The notes under the pieces were generated by a model. That model was not told the DNA's origin and made no database searches. It was given only the letters and a program-made list of their open reading frames with translations. A stretch of DNA of 62,404 nt, taken from positions 1 through 62,404 of the forward strand of contig CBIHLI010000001.1 of assembly GCA_966210575.1 (NCBI GenBank). The letters run 5' to 3'. The position numbers were made by a program, and so were the translations under genes. The stretch is from an uncultured Sphingomonas sp. Lineage in GTDB: Bacteria; Pseudomonadota; Alphaproteobacteria; Sphingomonadales; Sphingomonadaceae. Numbering within the stretch: the stretch's first letter is position 1; every line of letters starts with the position of its first letter. Of the stretch, positions 4,069-17,080 are shown one piece after another.

Positions 4069-4555
4069 TGTTCGGTCCCCTTTGACGGTGCCGGGAGCAT
4101 CGGAAGCATCGCTGGCATCTTTCCGGTCAGATACGCCTCAGCGATCTGTGGCCGCATCCAGTCGCCGACCGTCCCGCCGGTTGGGAGCATGATGTTGGCC
4201 ATGAACTCGTCCTCGAAGACGCTGATGCCGCTCTCGACGGCCTCGAGCTTCGCCTTGATGACGAGCGCCAGGGCGCGCCACTTCTGCTTCACGGCCTGCT
4301 CGTACTGCTTCGCCGCCTCGGTCTCCGATCGGCGATATTCGGTGTAGCCCCGCTTGTACGTCGTGAAGCGCTTCTCATCGCGCGCCGGCAGCGGAAGCAG
4401 GAAGCGGATCATCCGGCCTTCCATCCGAAAGCCGACGACGGCCCCGCCTTCCTGCCAGCCGTACATGAACTGGTCGGCACCGTAGCGGGTCAGAGTCCGC
4501 TCGATCTCCGAACGGCTCTTGTCGCTGCTGACGTCGGTGTTGGCGGCGTACAGAG

Positions 4556-9230: not shown

Positions 9231-9611
9231 TCAGAACGGAAGCGGTGCGGACAGAAGGTCGATCGGTCGGTTCGGATTGGCTTGCGGGCTGTGCGGAGCA
9301 TTCTCCCGGCCCCAGCGCTCGAGACTGACGAGATGATCGTGCTCGGCCTCACTGATCCGTTCGCAGGCGCACGCCGGCCAGACGCGGTAGAGATCGATTG
9401 GCCGGCCGTTGACCTCGGCCTGCCAGTTCCAGCGCTCGAGCAGCTCGCCGGTGTCGGGATCGCGGACCTGGCCCCAGAAGATGCGAAGGCCGACCGGATG
9501 GCCGCCGCGCGCCAGTTTCCACCGATAGAAGCCGGCGGTCGGGACGTCCGGATCCACGCTGCCCGGAAGTAGCGGACGGCGCTCCGAATAGTTGAGCGCG
9601 GCGCGGGCCAT
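9231..9611 (-). CDS. Hypothetical phage protein
   Basis: P.AGFYR.KL.RGG..V..RI motif; coupled to ACP gene. Confidence 0.7.
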   Translation of the reverse strand: MARAALNYSERRPLLPGSVDPDVPTAGFYRWKLARGGHPVGLRIFWGQVRDPDTGELLERWNWQAEVNGRPIDLYRVWPACACERISEAEHDHLVSLERWGRENAPHSPQANPNRPIDLLSAPLPF

Positions 9612-9853
9612 CAGCCGCGGCCCAGCTTGCGATTGACGAGCGCGATGACGTGGCCGACGTTCTCGAGGCTGGCGCCTTCGTCGTCGGTGATCTTGATCTT
9701 GAACTTGTCCTCGAGCTTCACCAGCAACTCGATCGGATCGAGGCTGTCGCCGTTGAGATCCTCGAACGTCGACACATAGGTGAAGCGCCTGGTGCCGAAC
9801 TGTTTGGCGATGACGTCGCAGACCTCGGGGGCGGCGGATTCGATATCGGCCAT
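9611..9853 (-). CDS. Acyl carrier protein-like protein
   Basis: 80 aa, FEDLNGDSLDPIELLVKLEDKFKIKITDDE with the phosphopantetheine Ser (DSL). Confidence 0.85.
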   Translation of the reverse strand: MADIESAAPEVCDVIAKQFGTRRFTYVSTFEDLNGDSLDPIELLVKLEDKFKIKITDDEGASLENVGHVIALVNRKLGRG

Positions 9854-10208: not shown

Positions 10209-10534
10209 CGGCTGCGCCTTTTCGGGCGGCCGCCTTGGCAGCTGTTGCACATGACCGTCTCGTCCTTCTTGGCGAGACGGTGATTGGCATGAAGGTCGAT
10301 GAAGCGGCCGCAGAGGTATCGCTCCGCAGTGCCAGGAGCGTGGGAAACATATGCCCGAGCTCGATGCTTCTCGGGCCGTCCGCGGCGTGGGAGCCGACTA
10401 CGCCACTTGCTGACGCGCGACCCCAGCCTGGGTCGCGGCTCGCTTTCGACGATCCTGGAGGGAATAGAGGCGAAACGGACGCCGGCGAGAAGCCCAGCGA
10501 CCGCAGCGGCCATCATTCGTGAACGATTGAACAT
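10205..10534 (-). CDS. Hypothetical basic protein
   Basis: TGATG overlap with the stop of the Tas-like gene. Confidence 0.5.
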   Translation of the reverse strand: MFNRSRMMAAAVAGLLAGVRFASIPSRIVESEPRPRLGSRVSKWRSRLPRRGRPEKHRARAYVSHAPGTAERYLCGRFIDLHANHRLAKKDETVMCNSCQGGRPKRRSR

Positions 10535-11625
10535 CAGGCGCGCCTCCATGCTGCCCAGAGGTCCCGGAGCAGGCGTTTCTCGATAAACCGCTTGGCGCGG
10601 GCGTGGATGATGCAGTCGCGCTCGACGCCAGCGGCGATTTCGTGGGCGCGACGGTCGATGTAGAGCTGCCCGTACGGGCCGACGGCGTGGCGTTTGCCGT
10701 CCTTCGGATTACGGATCTGCTGTTTCAGGATGGACTCGCCGATGTTCCACATCAGGGAGCGGCGGCGAGGGACGTAGCCCTGAAGGATCGCGGCATCGCC
10801 TGCGACGCGACGCTGGCGCTCGCCATCGAACACCGCCAATCCCATGCGCTTCCAGAGCGCAGAGACGGTCTTGAATTCGCCTGGGCCGATGAGGCGATCC
10901 GCATCGTCAAGCGCTCGAGCTGCGCATTCGCCGACGATCATAGCCAAGAAGCGCGTTGAAAGACCGGGCACGCCTGCGGCCCATCCAGCGACGGGCAACT
11001 GCCCGCCGAGCATGGCGAGCTTCTTCTCTTCGATCGCGATCGCCTGGACCAACGGCTCCATCGCGGCGTGATACGGCGCCAGCCAGGCCATCACTTCCGG
11101 GGTGGGCGCGCGGTACAGCTTCGCGCCGGCCTCCTTGTCGCCGCCGCTGACGCGACGGCACACGGACATCGCCTGAAGCAGGACCCGCTGATGCGCTTGA
11201 CGCAGATCGTCGTAACGTCGCTTGGTTTCGCTGATTTCGCCGATGAGAGCGGAATATATTTGGGCAGCGCCGAGAATATGGCCCTCATCGGCTCCGCCAG
11301 TGGCGGAAGGGGTGGTCGCAGGCATGGGGGACCTGGCTTTCGACCGCTTAGAGGCCTGCGACCTCGCGCCGGAGCGCGAATTAGGTGCCCGAGGCGCGGT
11401 CCCACCGGGTGCCGGAGTCATTGAGGCCTCGGGCTGCACAGCCTTGCGGCTGCGCGATTTCTGGCGGGGCGCTCCAGGACTGGTTTTCGCTGCTGACCCG
11501 GCCCCGCCCACGGCCGAAGCCGCGATCTCCTGAACTTGGTCGAAGCTACGGTCGAAATGCTGCCGCACCCGCTCCGTCGACACCGCGGCCGCTTTTTCGA
11601 ATTCGCCGAAATTCTCAATGAGCAT
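10534..11625 (-). CDS. Nop/IS110-related RNA-binding domain protein, TasA-like (no nuclease domain)
   Basis: Coiled-coil then VPGLS..LAMIVGE, F.TVSALWKRMGL, Y..RR..E, HARAKRFIEKRLLRDLW; no RuvC/DEDD, HNH or IS110 catalytic SG seen; GGAGG RBS before ATG 11625; associated guide array. Confidence 0.82.
   Translation of the reverse strand: MLIENFGEFEKAAAVSTERVRQHFDRSFDQVQEIAASAVGGAGSAAKTSPGAPRQKSRSRKAVQPEASMTPAPGGTAPRAPNSRSGARSQASKRSKARSPMPATTPSATGGADEGHILGAAQIYSALIGEISETKRRYDDLRQAHQRVLLQAMSVCRRVSGGDKEAGAKLYRAPTPEVMAWLAPYHAAMEPLVQAIAIEEKKLAMLGGQLPVAGWAAGVPGLSTRFLAMIVGECAARALDDADRLIGPGEFKTVSALWKRMGLAVFDGERQRRVAGDAAILQGYVPRRRSLMWNIGESILKQQIRNPKDGKRHAVGPYGQLYIDRRAHEIAAGVERDCIIHARAKRFIEKRLLRDLWAAWRRA
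11239..11524 (-). ncRNA. Stem-loop TIGR-like guide RNA array, 4 units
   Basis: Units at 11463-11508, 11387-11434, 11314-11363 and 11239-11292, each a 7-11 bp stem enclosing CCN-N9-YG-N4-CCN-N9-YG; period 75/72/73 nt; small hairpins between units. Confidence 0.85.
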
Positions 11626-12187
11626 TGGCTTCCTCCCACAGCTTGGCGAGAGTGGCCTCGCTAAGGGTGCTGCCAATCGGAGCGTCAACCGGCCCGTTCT
11701 TTTCGGCCGCGGCGGCGACAGCTTCCTGCCAGCGTGACTGGAGAGCCATCGAACGAGAAGCGATCTTGTAACTTGAAGCACTCTCCCGGACCTCTGCGGG
11801 AGTGGCGTTGCGGATCGGCTTTCCGCCGTAGATCGGCATGTCCATGAAACGGCGGAGCTCGTTGCTCATCGCCTCCGCCAGACCGGGACTCGATCGCGCG
11901 ACCGAAGCAGATTTGATGATGGACTCGCGGCGCGCTCGAAGAACCGCGCGCACCTGGTCTCGGCACCATTGCTCGACCACGGTCGCGAGATGCTCTCGCA
12001 TCAGATCGGGAGATGCGAGCAGCTTGCGACTCAGCGCGGCAGCTGCGGCGTCGATGTCGTCGTTGGTATCTTCCAGCGCAGCGGCGGCGAGCTCTCGCGC
12101 CGTGTCCAGCGGCGCGGCGGCACGCTTCTGGGCTTCAGGCGATGTTTGGCCGCGCCGGCTGGACTCCAAAACTTGTGTTGCTGACAA
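11615..12187 (-). CDS. Hypothetical protein, putative Tas partner; first gene of leftward operon
   Basis: TTG start behind GGGGAG; stop overlaps start of the Tas-like gene; contains a guide unit. Confidence 0.75.
   Translation of the reverse strand: MSATQVLESSRRGQTSPEAQKRAAAPLDTARELAAAALEDTNDDIDAAAAALSRKLLASPDLMREHLATVVEQWCRDQVRAVLRARRESIIKSASVARSSPGLAEAMSNELRRFMDMPIYGGKPIRNATPAEVRESASSYKIASRSMALQSRWQEAVAAAAEKNGPVDAPIGSTLSEATLAKLWEEANAH
12104..12164 (-). ncRNA. Single TIGR-like guide unit
   Basis: gtccagc(c)ggcgcgg-CCA-aacatcgcc-TG-aagc-CCA-gaagcgtgc-CG-ccgcgcc-gctggac. Confidence 0.8.
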
Positions 12188-12212
12188 TTCGCATCTCCCC
12201 TTGATCGGGGGA

Positions 12213-12255
12213 GACTGCTACAAAGGTTTTGTTACAGGGTCAACAAGATTTTTGT
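12213..12255 (-). promoter_or_regulatory. PL-like promoter with two ACAA-N5-TTGT operators (12220-12232, 12243-12255)
   Basis: Minus strand TTGACC-17-TAGCAG; palindromes match those between cI and cro. Confidence 0.7.
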
Positions 12256-12261
12256 TAAGCG

Positions 12262-12723
12262 CTAAAGCCCAATGCTGGCACAGCCGGTTTCGAAGATATC
12301 TATTGCTCGGTCGGAGCCGGTCAGATCAAAGGTGAGATCGACGTTCGCGCCCCGATAATCGGTTGCTCTCACAGCCATGGTGCGCGACCGCGCGATGGCT
12401 TCTATGAGCGGACCGGCATCGTTCAGAAGAACAACAAAGCGACCAGTATGGCCCCAATTCGCCGCGATCGATGGTTGCTGATCGAATCGAACAAGCACCT
12501 CGCGAAGGATAGGCCTTCCCCCCAGATGACGTCCCATGTCGACGGTGATCTGACGCCCGCCACTTCGGCTGCCTGAATCGCACACGATAAGCATCGCGCC
12601 CGGCGGGTTGTTCAACGTGACGGAGACCTTTCTGGCGTCCGTCATTGGGTCTGAGTCGTGAGCTATGTGCCACCGATCGGCAGGGGCGGCCGAGGACATT
12701 GCTAAAAGTGCTGCAATAATCAT
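12262..12723 (-). CDS. Exported protein co-transcribed with repressor
   Basis: Signal-peptide-like N-terminus, DPMTD motif; ATGA overlap with cI stop. Confidence 0.7.
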   Translation of the reverse strand: MIIAALLAMSSAAPADRWHIAHDSDPMTDARKVSVTLNNPPGAMLIVCDSGSRSGGRQITVDMGRHLGGRPILREVLVRFDQQPSIAANWGHTGRFVVLLNDAGPLIEAIARSRTMAVRATDYRGANVDLTFDLTGSDRAIDIFETGCASIGL

Positions 12724-13394
12724 CTGTAACGCCTTCCAAACCAAACGACGCGGCCCTTGATGTCGATTTCCTCGAGGAGACGTTCTTCGGGATCGTATCG
12801 AGGGTTCTCGCTCATCACCTTCACTTTTACCGGATCCGAGCCGTATATACGCTGAAGGTATTTGACGACATAGCCATCACCTTCCCACAGGCAAAACGGT
12901 CCAGGCTGAGCCAGGCTGCGCTTCCTCGTATCGATCAGCAGCTGGTCCCCGTCCTGAAAGACCGGCTGCATTGAGTCTCCGTCGATCTCGATGAGCAACA
13001 AATCCGCGGGCGGTACATTGAGCTCTCGCACAAGGCTGCCAGAGAAGGCGCGCTTCTGAAGATCGCCTTCGCCGCTGCCTGGCCCGCCAGCGCCGGCATA
13101 AGTCGGCAGCATATCAACCATCACCAGATCATCGCCGGTGTTGATTGTCAGGATCGGGTCGTGGTGCGTCTCTTCGTCCGCTGCCTCGATCGCCTTCCTC
13201 ACATAACGCATCCATTGGGGCACGCGCTTCGCGTGCGGCTGCTCGAAATTCGAGACAGACTGTTGCTTCAGCTTTATCTCGACGCCTTCCTCGAATGCGA
13301 AAGCCCGCGCTCGATTGGCAACGTCAGCAGTCGACCACCCTAAGCGGTCTCGCTCCTCGCGGAGCCAGCGTTTTACCTCCTCAACGTTCTCCAT
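12720..13394 (-). CDS. cI: CI-like repressor (HTH + S24 peptidase)
   Basis: N-terminal HTH (QQSVSNFE), AG cleavage-site candidate, GDSMQP and VVK catalytic Ser/Lys; divergent from cro. Confidence 0.9.
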   Translation of the reverse strand: MENVEEVKRWLREERDRLGWSTADVANRARAFAFEEGVEIKLKQQSVSNFEQPHAKRVPQWMRYVRKAIEAADEETHHDPILTINTGDDLVMVDMLPTYAGAGGPGSGEGDLQKRAFSGSLVRELNVPPADLLLIEIDGDSMQPVFQDGDQLLIDTRKRSLAQPGPFCLWEGDGYVVKYLQRIYGSDPVKVKVMSENPRYDPEERLLEEIDIKGRVVWFGRRYR

Positions 13395-13407
13395 GCCGCT
13401 TTGAGGT

Positions 13408-13466
13408 ACAAAAGATTTGGGGAGGCCGCTCCTACAAAACTCTTGTTGCCTGCACAAAACTATTGT
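13408..13466. promoter_or_regulatory. OR-like region, three ACAA-N5-TTG(T/G) operators
   Basis: 13408-13420, 13434-13446 and 13454-13466 between divergent cI and cro. Confidence 0.75.
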
Positions 13467-13479
13467 AGCTGAGCCGGTC

Positions 13480-13707
13480 ATGAGCCATGAAGCCCTGAAG
13501 CGTGCGCTCGCCAAGGCAGACGACAATCAGTCGAAATTTGCCGAAGCGATTGGCACCTCTCAACAGCGCATCTCGTATCTGCTGAAGAACGAGAAGCCGC
13601 TCCCTGCCGAGCTGGTCCTACGGACGGAAGAAGTGTTCGGGATTCCCCGTCACGAGCTGCGTCCCGACATCTATCCAGCGCCTGAAGCCGTGAAGTCGGC
13701 AGCATGA
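13480..13707 (+). CDS. cro: Cro-like (YdaS family) regulator
   Basis: NQSKFAEAIGTSQQRIS HTH and ELRPDIY signature. Confidence 0.88.
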   Translation: MSHEALKRALAKADDNQSKFAEAIGTSQQRISYLLKNEKPLPAELVLRTEEVFGIPRHELRPDIYPAPEAVKSAA

Positions 13708-14012: not shown

Positions 14013-14495
14013 ATGGTGCCTGACCCGTCAGTGTCGAATCCTCGGCTGATTTCCACGGATGCCTTCAGAGAGGCGGTCTATCACGCGATCAGGCTTTTCG
14101 TCGGTCGCGGCCGTGCCTGGTCTGTCGAGGACGTTGCGGTCGCGCTCAACGCCGCCGACCACAAGATCACGGCTAGAGCTGTCCAGAGCTGGATCGCATC
14201 GGACCCTATCGAGCGTCGGACGCCGGACACCCCGATGTTGGGCGCGCTCTGCCAGCTGCTCGGTCCGTCATTCACGGCCAAGTGGCTCGGACCGCTGGGG
14301 CAGGGGGCCCATAGCCTTTCCGCCGTTACCGGTTCGCCGGCCCAGATCATCGCCGCGCTGATGGACGGATCGGCACAGTTCGCCGTCCGCGGGATCGACG
14401 GGGTGTTCTGCAATATCGACCGCGGCGACCTCGAGACGGTGGCCGACAAGATGATCGAGATCCTGACGCCCTTCTCGTCCAAGCAGGGAGCTTGA
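14013..14495 (+). CDS. CII-like HTH regulator
   Basis: Position after cro; HTH-like segment SVEDVA...TARAVQSW. Confidence 0.6.
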   Translation: MVPDPSVSNPRLISTDAFREAVYHAIRLFVGRGRAWSVEDVAVALNAADHKITARAVQSWIASDPIERRTPDTPMLGALCQLLGPSFTAKWLGPLGQGAHSLSAVTGSPAQIIAALMDGSAQFAVRGIDGVFCNIDRGDLETVADKMIEILTPFSSKQGA

Positions 14496-17080
14496 CCATG
14501 GCGAGGGGAGGGGAGCCCCTGGTTGTGGAGACCAAGGTCGCCGAGGATCCATACCGGGCCTTTCTCGAGGCGAAGATCGCGACGCCCCCAAGTCTCGGTC
14601 TGCCGTGTGAGCTGGACGAGGTACGATCCCACCTGATCGACGGCCGGCCGATGAAGGATCATGTCCGCCACATCGTGCGCTGGGCGGTCCAGGGCGGGCG
14701 CCGCGGTATCTTCGCCAATTTCGGCCTGCACAAAACGATGATGCAGCTGGAGATCGGCAGGATCATCACCACAAAGACCGGCGAACTCGGCCTGATTTGC
14801 CTGCCGCTCGGCGTCCGGCGTGAATTCATGATCGATGCCAGTCTGCTCGGGACGCCAGTGGCGTTCGCTCAGAGCGATCGCGAAATCGATGCTCTGAAGC
14901 TGGACGATCAGATCGAGCCGCCGCTCGTGCTGACCAACTATGAATCAGTGCGCGAGGGCAAGATCGACCTGTCTCGCTTCGGCTGGGCTTCGCTCGATGA
15001 GGCCAGCGTGCTCCGCTCCTATGGCTCGAAAACCTACCAGGAATTCCTGCCGCTGTTCGAGGGCGTGAAATACCGTCACGTCGCGACCGCCACTCCAAGC
15101 CCGAACCGCTACAAGGAGCTGATCCACTATGCCGGCTTTCTCGGCGTCATGGACACCGGGCAAGCGCTGACACGCTTCTTTCAGCGCAACAGCGAACGCG
15201 CGAACGACCTTACGCTCTATCCGCACAAGGAAGCTGAATTCTGGCTCTGGCTGAACAGCTGGGGCGTCTTTCTCCAGCGGCCGTCGGACCTCGGCTTCTC
15301 CGACGAAGGATATGATCTCCCGCCGATCACCGTCCGCTATCACCAGGTCGCCAGCGACATCTCTGACGCCGGTACCGAGAGTGATGGGCAAGGCCGGCTG
15401 ATACGTGATGCGGCGATCGGCGTCGTCGATGCCGCCCGCGAGAAGCGCGCGACGCTGTCGGCGAGGATCGCGAAAGCGAAGGAAATCGTCGGCGCCAGTC
15501 CGGACGAGCACTTCCTCATTTGGCACGACCTTGAGGACGAGCGCCGAGCAATCTGCGCCGAGATTTCCGGCGCGAAGGCCGTCTATGGCTCGCAGGAACT
15601 GGACGTACGCGAAGAGATCATCGGAGACTTCGCGGAGGGCCGGCTACCGATCCTCGCTGCCAAACCGGTGATGCTCGGTAGCGGCACGAACCTTCAACGC
15701 CACTGCCACCGCGCGATCTTCGCCGGCATCGGCTTCAAGTTCAACGACCTGATTCAAGCAATTCACCGACTGCACCGCTTCCAGCAGGCCAAGCCGGTCG
15801 AGATCGACATCATCCACGCCGAGACCGAGACCGAGGTGCTGCGCACGCTGCAAAACAAGTGGCAGCGGCATGAAGAGCTCACCGGCCGAATGAGCGAGAT
15901 CATCCGGGAGTTCGGCCTCAACCACGATGCCGCTGCCGAGACCCTGAAGCGGTCGATCGGATGCGAACGCTCGATGGAGGAAGGCGCCTTCTGGTCGATG
16001 GTCAACAATGACTGTGTCGACGAGGTTCGGCGTATGCCGGACGACAGCGTCGACCTGGTGGTCACGTCAATCCCCTTCGGCAATCACTACGAATATTCGG
16101 CCAGCTACAACGACTTCGGCCACACCGACGATCACGATCACTTCTTCGCCCAGATGGATTTCCTGACGCCGCAGCTGCTCCGGATCCTGAAACCGGGCCG
16201 TATTGCGGCGGTGCACGTCAAGGACCGCATCAAGTTCGCCAGCGTCACCGGGATGACCCGGCCGACGGTCGAGCCGTTCCACGCGGACACTATCGCCCAT
16301 TTTCGGCGCCATGGCTTCGGCTACATGGGCCTGCGCTTCATCGCCACCGACGTGGTGCGCGAGAACAATCAAACCTACCGCCTCACCTATAAGGAGCTGC
16401 GGAAAGACAGCACGAAAATGGGATCCGGCTCACCGGAATTCCTGCTTCTATTCTTCAAGCTGCCAACGGACCGGAGCAATGGCTACGCCGACGTGCCGGT
16501 TACGAAGGACGCGGACGAATACAGCCTCGCCCGCTGGCAAATCGATGCCGATGCGCTTTGGAGGTCGAGCGGCAATCGACCTCTGACGACGGCGGAAATG
16601 GCATTGATGCCGCCCGACACGCTGGCGCGAGTGTTCCCCGCCTGGTCGATCCAGCAAGTCTATGATCACGAGGCGCATGTCGCGATCGGCGAAGGGCTTG
16701 CGGCGCGGAAGGCACTGCCAAAGACCTTCTCGGTACTGAAGCCCGGATCACTGCGCGATGACGTCTGGACCGACGTCTCAAGGATGCGAACGCTCAATAG
16801 CGAACAGGTACGTCGCCGGGTCGAGCAGCATATCTGTCCTCTCCAGTTCGACATCGTGGACCGTGCGATCAGGCTTTACTCCAATCCTGGCGAGACTGTG
16901 TTCGATCCGTTTGCCAGACTCGGCACCGTACCGATGCGGGCCGTGAAGCTCGGTCGGCGCGGCGCCGGCGTCGAACTGGATCCCAAATCCTTTCGGGATG
17001 CCGTCCATTATTGCCGAGAGGCTGAAGCCAACCGAGCAACGCCCAGCCTCTTTGATCTGATCGACGCGGAGGCCGCATGA
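14492..17080 (+). CDS. SNF2-like helicase fused to N4/N6 DNA methyltransferase
   Basis: GLHKT, LDEAS, TATP, QAIHRLHRF helicase motifs; VTSIPF, HICPLQ, DPFARLGT MTase motifs. Confidence 0.9.
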   Translation: MTMARGGEPLVVETKVAEDPYRAFLEAKIATPPSLGLPCELDEVRSHLIDGRPMKDHVRHIVRWAVQGGRRGIFANFGLHKTMMQLEIGRIITTKTGELGLICLPLGVRREFMIDASLLGTPVAFAQSDREIDALKLDDQIEPPLVLTNYESVREGKIDLSRFGWASLDEASVLRSYGSKTYQEFLPLFEGVKYRHVATATPSPNRYKELIHYAGFLGVMDTGQALTRFFQRNSERANDLTLYPHKEAEFWLWLNSWGVFLQRPSDLGFSDEGYDLPPITVRYHQVASDISDAGTESDGQGRLIRDAAIGVVDAAREKRATLSARIAKAKEIVGASPDEHFLIWHDLEDERRAICAEISGAKAVYGSQELDVREEIIGDFAEGRLPILAAKPVMLGSGTNLQRHCHRAIFAGIGFKFNDLIQAIHRLHRFQQAKPVEIDIIHAETETEVLRTLQNKWQRHEELTGRMSEIIREFGLNHDAAAETLKRSIGCERSMEEGAFWSMVNNDCVDEVRRMPDDSVDLVVTSIPFGNHYEYSASYNDFGHTDDHDHFFAQMDFLTPQLLRILKPGRIAAVHVKDRIKFASVTGMTRPTVEPFHADTIAHFRRHGFGYMGLRFIATDVVRENNQTYRLTYKELRKDSTKMGSGSPEFLLLFFKLPTDRSNGYADVPVTKDADEYSLARWQIDADALWRSSGNRPLTTAEMALMPPDTLARVFPAWSIQQVYDHEAHVAIGEGLAARKALPKTFSVLKPGSLRDDVWTDVSRMRTLNSEQVRRRVEQHICPLQFDIVDRAIRLYSNPGETVFDPFARLGTVPMRAVKLGRRGAGVELDPKSFRDAVHYCREAEANRATPSLFDLIDAEAA

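Follow-up and report, generated by a model that had tools for sequence, protein, structure and literature searches.

A putative satellite guide unit of a stem-loop TIGR-TasA system in the coding start of an unnamed phage gene

The window, by which we mean the whole 62,404-nucleotide stretch of DNA from an uncultured Sphingomonas sp. that was analyzed, contains a temperate phage with genes for a terminase, portal, major head protein, endolysin and RecT, and with a cI/cro switch. One of its genes begins with a long hairpin laid out like a guide unit of a TIGR array. The initial annotation had placed a stem with one bulge, enclosing two spacers and their boxes, within the first ~28 codons of 11615-12187, about 600 nt from the main array. 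This element, here termed U5, was delineated by RNA folding, a core-pattern scan and synonymous recoding.

12104-12164, minus strand: U5, stem-loop TIGR unit
12150-12164, minus strand: 5' arm, 15 nt
12147-12149, minus strand: first box C (CCA)
12138-12146, minus strand: spacer A (aacatcgcc)
12136-12137, minus strand: first box D (TG)
12132-12135, minus strand: loop (aagc)
12129-12131, minus strand: second box C (CCA)
12120-12128, minus strand: spacer B (gaagcgtgc)
12118-12119, minus strand: second box D (CG)
12104-12117, minus strand: 3' arm, 14 nt

The core, CCA-aacatcgcc-TG-aagc-CCA-gaagcgtgc-CG, covers 12149-12118 on the minus strand and is closed by 14 base pairs with one bulge. U5 falls within codons 8-28 of the open reading frame, at a distance of 617 nt from the next unit, so that both the described anatomy and the described location were borne out. 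The sequence of U5 was letter-identical in the assemblies of all four sequencing runs compared, which may be the source of this DNA.

The predicted RNA fold of U5 has an energy of -36 kcal/mol (z -5.25), and none of 200 shuffled sequences was equally stable. One alternative to a guide unit is that the hairpin arose by chance in coding DNA rich in GC, or simply follows from the encoded protein; the GC content of 65% and the 39 matches to a relaxed core pattern in the window speak for it. A stem of at least 7 pairs was present in only five of these matches (U1-U5), all on the minus strand between 11250 and 12149, as compared to 0.02 stemmed cores expected per simulated window, with a pattern that was fitted after the units had been seen. 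When the codons of residues 8-29 were redrawn with the amino acids fixed, 2 of 1000 versions folded as stably and 52 of 1000 retained all four boxes; the structure is therefore not dictated by the protein. These shuffle, simulation and synonymous controls, together with homologous units at the same position in other loci, refute the chance explanation, to which we assign next to no probability.

The other four units are located in the N-terminal coding part of the gene downstream of the partner gene, as we term the gene that holds U5.

10534-11625, minus strand: tasA, 363 aa, coiled coil and Nop domain (structure model, Foldseek, profile)
11470-11501, minus strand: U1, core CCG-N9-CG-aaaa-CCA-N9-CG, 7-bp stem
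11395-11426, minus strand: U2, core CCT-N9-CG-gcac-CCG-N9-CG, 8-bp stem
11323-11354, minus strand: U3, core CCT-N9-CG-aaag-CCA-N9-TG, 9-bp stem
11250-11281, minus strand: U4, core CCA-N9-CG-ctgc-CCA-N9-CG, 11-bp stem

The tasA start codon (ATG at 11625, with GGAGG 6 nt upstream) lies within the last codons of the partner gene, giving an 11-nt start/stop overlap. A model of the 263-aa core (pLDDT 92), with the first 100 residues that hold U1-U3 outside the model, consists of a coiled coil and a Nop domain; its best Foldseek match was TasR 9mty (E 1e-6), followed by TasH and then by IS110 recombinases. A profile search of the PDB returned 9mty as the sole match (6e-14). No RuvC or HNH nuclease domain was detected in the 363-aa protein by Pfam or PHROG, or in the 263-aa core model. 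Thus, based on the modelled structure and the profile matches, the protein is identified as a nuclease-less TasA. The IS110/IS1111 bridge-RNA recombinases share the Nop-like RNA-binding domain, as is evident from a match of TasA to PHROG 4285 ('transposase') and from the weaker Foldseek matches, but the TasA of the window is accompanied by multiple separate guide units, and its gene keeps to one place in the early operon of a phage. An identity as IS110 bridge recombinase was rejected, since no N-terminal DEDD/RuvC domain was found by Pfam, by PHROG or in the 263-aa core model.

Stem-loop TIGR-TasA systems are known in the published accounts covered here from PlTasA (Faure et al. 2025, PMC12045711; Guan et al., bioRxiv 10.64898/2026.08.11.744272) and from BlTasA and MbTasA (Xu et al., bioRxiv 10.64898/2026.09.09.750476). 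According to the sections of the latter study considered here, tigRNAs are made from inside a tasA coding region, TasA represses, and a CUU at the stem base is frequent and linked to processing. In the portion of Faure Table S1 consulted (PMC12045711), the clade of the window's TasA corresponds to node18136, and two loci fetched with the window's tasA (L087 and L094) are rows of the table. [quoted passage not shown] A variable palindromic stem replaces the edge repeats, and the 14-bp stem of U5 fits this pattern. Unlike in the published systems, the coding region of a separate, conserved gene upstream of tasA holds one unit, CG is frequent at box D, CCG or CCT can stand at box C, and the U5 stem base lacks CUU, which is present in the U3-U4 linker. 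A near-obligate partner gene in this clade is a further difference from the published descriptions, as far as these are covered here.

U5 combines CCA-N9-TG and CCA-N9-CG halves with a palindromic stem, a neighbouring Nop-type Tas protein without nuclease and spacers that vary among homologues. Its D-loop-C 9-mer agrees with TGAAACCCA, as seen in the published Ta/Par arrays, in 8 of 9 positions, whereas the remaining units reach 7, 5, 7 and 5, in line with the earlier remark that this loop is the closest to the TIGR loop repeat. U5 has the longest stem of the five units, two CCA boxes and the best loop, and its stem sequence is unlike those of U1-U4. On sequence grounds, we conclude that U5 is a fifth guide-type unit and probably serves a TIGR-TasA system of the stem-loop type as a satellite guide. 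Taken alone, it adds one more unit, as would be expected, to an array of known type.

The gene that holds U5 was less easily placed.

11615-12187, minus strand: partner gene, 190 aa, helical, unnamed family (open reading frame, profile, structure model)

Translation starts at a TTG (12187) with GGGGAG 7 nt upstream; the only alternative in-frame start before the conserved core likewise lies 5' of the hairpin, and three homologous proteins begin at about the same distance. Residues 1-29, which include the U5 segment, have no secondary structure in the model, and the rest is almost wholly helical. The family comprises 822 clusters at 50% identity, with no convincing Pfam or PHROG match and with unnamed Atlas neighbours. 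No PDB or viral structure matched the fold (the best Z score, 6.2, reflected generic helices), and no similarity to TasA was detected. Homologues were absent from curated phage records in a single-sequence query, and none rose above noise in 400 family genomes.

The partner is located immediately 5' of tas in 92 of 94 distinct loci, a count that leaves out 6 short loci. Of these, 81 were recognized by profile; 11 of the 13 loci missed by the profile have a divergent partner, chosen by eye and aligned via the C-terminal domain (HHalign 96%, E 1e-9). In a search seeded with the partner, units were found downstream in 14 of 14 loci and tas in 13, the 14th locus ending 300 nt past the gene; only 5 distinct loci of this set were new. 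Four loci (L013, L022, L072 and L074) contain tas and the partner, yet no units of either loop class were found in them. The only partner gene named for tasA in the parts of Faure et al. considered (PMC12045711) is TasParB, which occurs with dual-repeat arrays. As described there, TasA-TasParB operons likewise combine a conserved gene with tasA and have arrays around and between the genes, but their partner is ParB-like and their arrays are of the dual-repeat type, whereas a helical partner and stem-loop units are found here. An assignment to this operon type was rejected: none of 150 partner proteins matched ParB in Pfam, the model is almost wholly helical and the arrays are stem-loop.

The initial annotation had further proposed that the two genes form one co-regulated module, since both carry a 5' guide hairpin. 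The module itself stands: partner and tasA belong together because of their adjacency in 92 of 94 loci and their 11-nt overlap, and not because both start with a hairpin. To the left of cI, the gene order is a small gene, the partner and then tasA, and the control region has the following features.

12720-13394, minus strand: CI-like repressor, helix-turn-helix and peptidase S24 (context)
13480-13707, plus strand: Cro-like repressor (context)
12219-12233 and 12242-12256, no strand assigned: operator-like palindromes WACAA-N5-TTGTW, exact, just upstream of the partner
12165-12179, no strand assigned: operator-like palindrome with 2 mismatches, in the first codons of the partner
13433-13447: operator-like palindrome WACAA-N5-TTGTW, exact, between cI and cro
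12193-12215, minus strand: predicted 8-bp leader hairpin pairing the Shine-Dalgarno of the partner (fold prediction)

The exact palindrome occurs three times in the window, as compared to 0.02 expected. A promoter-like sequence, TTGACC-17 nt-TAGCAG (12243-12215, minus strand), lies under the palindromes; it was read by eye, with no call from a promoter scanner. The CI-like repressor likely controls the partner-tasA operon, and from the sequence we infer that both genes are carried on one CI-controlled leftward early transcript. In all, six operator-like palindromes were observed in two clusters, one at the partner promoter (12165-12256) and one between cI and cro (13407-13467). The same early operon contains an acyl carrier protein-like gene (9611-9853, minus strand), and the rightward early operon a helicase-DNA methyltransferase fusion (14492-17080, plus strand). 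A hairpin similar to that in the leader, with a similar loop, precedes the partner gene in an Erythrobacter locus (L081, at about 4185-4212).

We consider it quite probable that U5 acts in trans as a TIGR unit of the partner start. U5 would be cut from the shared early partner-tasA transcript, the released RNA would be loaded onto a TasA dimer, and the complex would bind an 18-bp DNA site without cutting it, so that bound TasA blocks transcription and silences the site. Processing, loading, binding and repression are inferred by analogy with the published stem-loop TasA systems; what is established by observation is how U5 is built, that it sits in the coding start, that the downstream protein has the TasA fold, that partner and tasA are linked and that spacers turn over in a fixed frame. 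U5 would then be an optional array satellite in a protein segment that tolerates any spacer-encoded residues, and not a dedicated regulatory switch. Against this explanation stand the lack of a target, the decay of the unit in one close homologue, the many loci without a 5' unit and the absence of CUU at the U5 stem base.

The distribution of units was analyzed in 114 fetched tas loci (115 with the window). Near tas, 631 units were found in the 115 loci, as compared to 7 in 601 kb elsewhere on the same strand and 18 in 1074 kb on the other strand. Box D was CG as commonly as TG in 542 homologous units. Units with loops of 7-13 nt, resembling small hairpins, as compared to the 4-nt loops, were seen in ten loci (L063, L075, L076, L110, L113, L114, L005, L010, L021 and L031). 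After 8 short loci had been dropped, 76 distinct loci were left in which enough DNA precedes a canonical partner; a unit was present in the coding start of the partner in 4, upstream of it in 17 and at neither place in 55. The coding-start units are those of the window, L004, L006 and L084; L004 and L006 were reassigned by hand to this class, since in both of them the unit comes after a start that has a ribosome site. At the DNA level, these four units share one codon register and begin 29-38 nt past the start codon, and their stems differ yet pair. The 11 divergent partners contain 2-6 mid-gene units each, 29 of 31 in the same register as the coding-start units and six with loops of 8-13 nt. 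Thus, the expectation that homologues carry the same hairpin with variable spacers held for a subset of them and failed in the 55 loci without a 5' unit. These loci, the low number of coding-start units (4/76) and the mid-gene units of the 11 divergent partners also argue against 5' hairpins as the mark or cause of co-regulation.

A strict amino-acid signature of the unit was present in the N-terminal tail of 7 of 151 partner proteins, one of them probably by chance, and in a loose form in a few more, against a background of 7 in 22271 core positions. Members of the P0175 cluster, which are 90% identical as proteins, vary in their spacer codons (FKV/VKL/VPL/NPL), and their frame G-[HQ]-xxx-A-[NT]-[HQ]-xxx-A-P is constant; because of this variation, the spacers appear to be replaced in place under reading-frame constraint. 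Likewise, L004 and L006 have the same stems at matching array positions and different spacers. Judging from these sequences, the unit at the partner 5' end is optional, with a fixed box frame in which the spacers turn over. Units elsewhere sit upstream of the partner, mid-gene and at tas 3' ends; they gather where the protein sequence is free, at termini, linkers and gene junctions, and U5 is one such satellite.

The positions bear on a second alternative, in which U5 acts mainly in cis: TasA bound to the uncut hairpin, or an excision that cuts the message, would tune partner and tasA output. The narrow placement of all four DNA-level cases behind the start codon is consistent with such a role, as is the predicted pairing of the partner's Shine-Dalgarno, and excision of a guide from codons 8-28 would have to destroy that partner message. 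The 55 loci without a 5' unit and the units at other positions argue against it, and so do spacers that hold their 9+9 length and turn over like guides, neither of which a pure binding site needs. We regard this alternative as unlikely; an effect on partner expression could occur as a side effect of U5, and is not its conserved role.

According to a third alternative, U5 is an unused leftover of array spreading, tolerated in a dispensable N-terminal tail. In the partner tree, which was built by a quick method and has little support at its deep nodes, in-gene 5' units occur here and there in one half, itself weakly supported, and many relatives in that half lack them. Moreover, 7 of the 8 differences between the window's partner and P0001, its nearest variant, are in the first 21 residues, and two of them would disrupt box C as well as the outer stem, so a U5-type unit can decay; the units of the closest protein homologues, P0001-P0003, were read from amino-acid signatures. 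P0125 and P0161 have loose signatures, and the lack of a target is also in line with a leftover. That U5 has the longest stem and the best loop of all five units, along with CCA at both C boxes, speaks against loss of use, as does the occurrence of the window's partner protein sequence on 226 contigs, as compared to 1 for P0001. We therefore hold a leftover to be very unlikely and retain a guide acting in trans as the preferred explanation.

Targets were predicted as 18-bp sites composed of spacer A and the reverse complement of spacer B, a geometry inferred from published 3' overhangs. The U5 target proposed in the initial annotation was correctly derived, although it found no real match. For U1-U5 in four geometries, the best match in the window and the 64%-complete host genome was 16/18. 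Five complete same-genus genomes gave five 16/18 matches to U5 as compared to 3 control matches; three were at one place of one gene, which from its N-terminal sequence we take to be yebC. Among 80 same-genus genomes no exact U5 match was found, and three 17/18 matches were in unrelated places (controls 0). In the same-genus search of the other units, matches were obtained in 0/81 for U4, 5/81 for U3 (controls more), 2/81 for U1 and, at 16/18, 5/81 for U2 (controls 0). Three of the U2 matches were in one gene, presumably carA; the host's own copy of this carA-like gene has more than 3 mismatches to the U2 target.

A scan of viral contigs yielded 3 exact matches for U5 (unrelated contigs), 3 for U4 (two of them near-copies) and 0 for U2 and U3. 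Targeting of kin phages was not seen, because none of the contigs with exact U5 or U4 matches shares DNA with the window. For 542 pooled guides from homologous loci, matches were no better than for shuffled pairs. The U5 target thus matched at chance level only in all sets searched, and most likely belongs to a competing phage or to a gene of the host outside the sampled set. The U5 loop and spacer B match the cro start (13488-13505, plus strand) at 17/18 positions, with no match of spacer A beside it; as a rule this self-match was rejected, since 53 of 3000 random 32-mers do so here and 0 of 544 homologous units in their own loci. Spacer A of U3 occurs exactly in cI (13340-13348); such self-matches arise by chance in about 2% per unit and were not seen in homologues.

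In the parts considered, the sources cited here already describe TasA systems of the stem-loop type, arrays that are split and guides located inside tas. The TIGR literature within our scope (PMC12045711, the Xu and Guan studies and 10.64898/2026.07.30.739390, each in part) mentions neither this partner nor guides placed in a gene other than tas; Faure figs S12-S14 are outside that scope and may bear on the novelty. Stem-loop tigRNA maturation, spacer acquisition and the natural role of nuclease-less TasA are named as open questions in the sections of Xu et al. (10.64898/2026.09.09.750476) and Faure et al. (PMC12045711) considered. Because it lies beside tasA in 92 of 94 loci, the partner is an obvious candidate for a missing factor. 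We tentatively suggest, while leaning against it at present, that this clade of TasA forms a TIGR subtype of two proteins, with the partner as dedicated accessory factor and with guides rewritten in place in the coding DNA of both genes. The partner might then serve in guide maturation, in spacer overwriting or as an effector that TasA recruits to DNA, and the subtype, if real, would offer a direct handle on how TIGR arrays gain new spacers. It is the near-obligate unnamed partner and the in-frame spacer replacement that merit experiment, and the role of the partner is testable by deletion in a two-gene cassette. A ready experimental system is provided by the cultured Rhizobium phage RHph_X2_25 (L155; MW960032.1, 23652-25718), in which the partner, tasA and six units lie beside a repressor gene.
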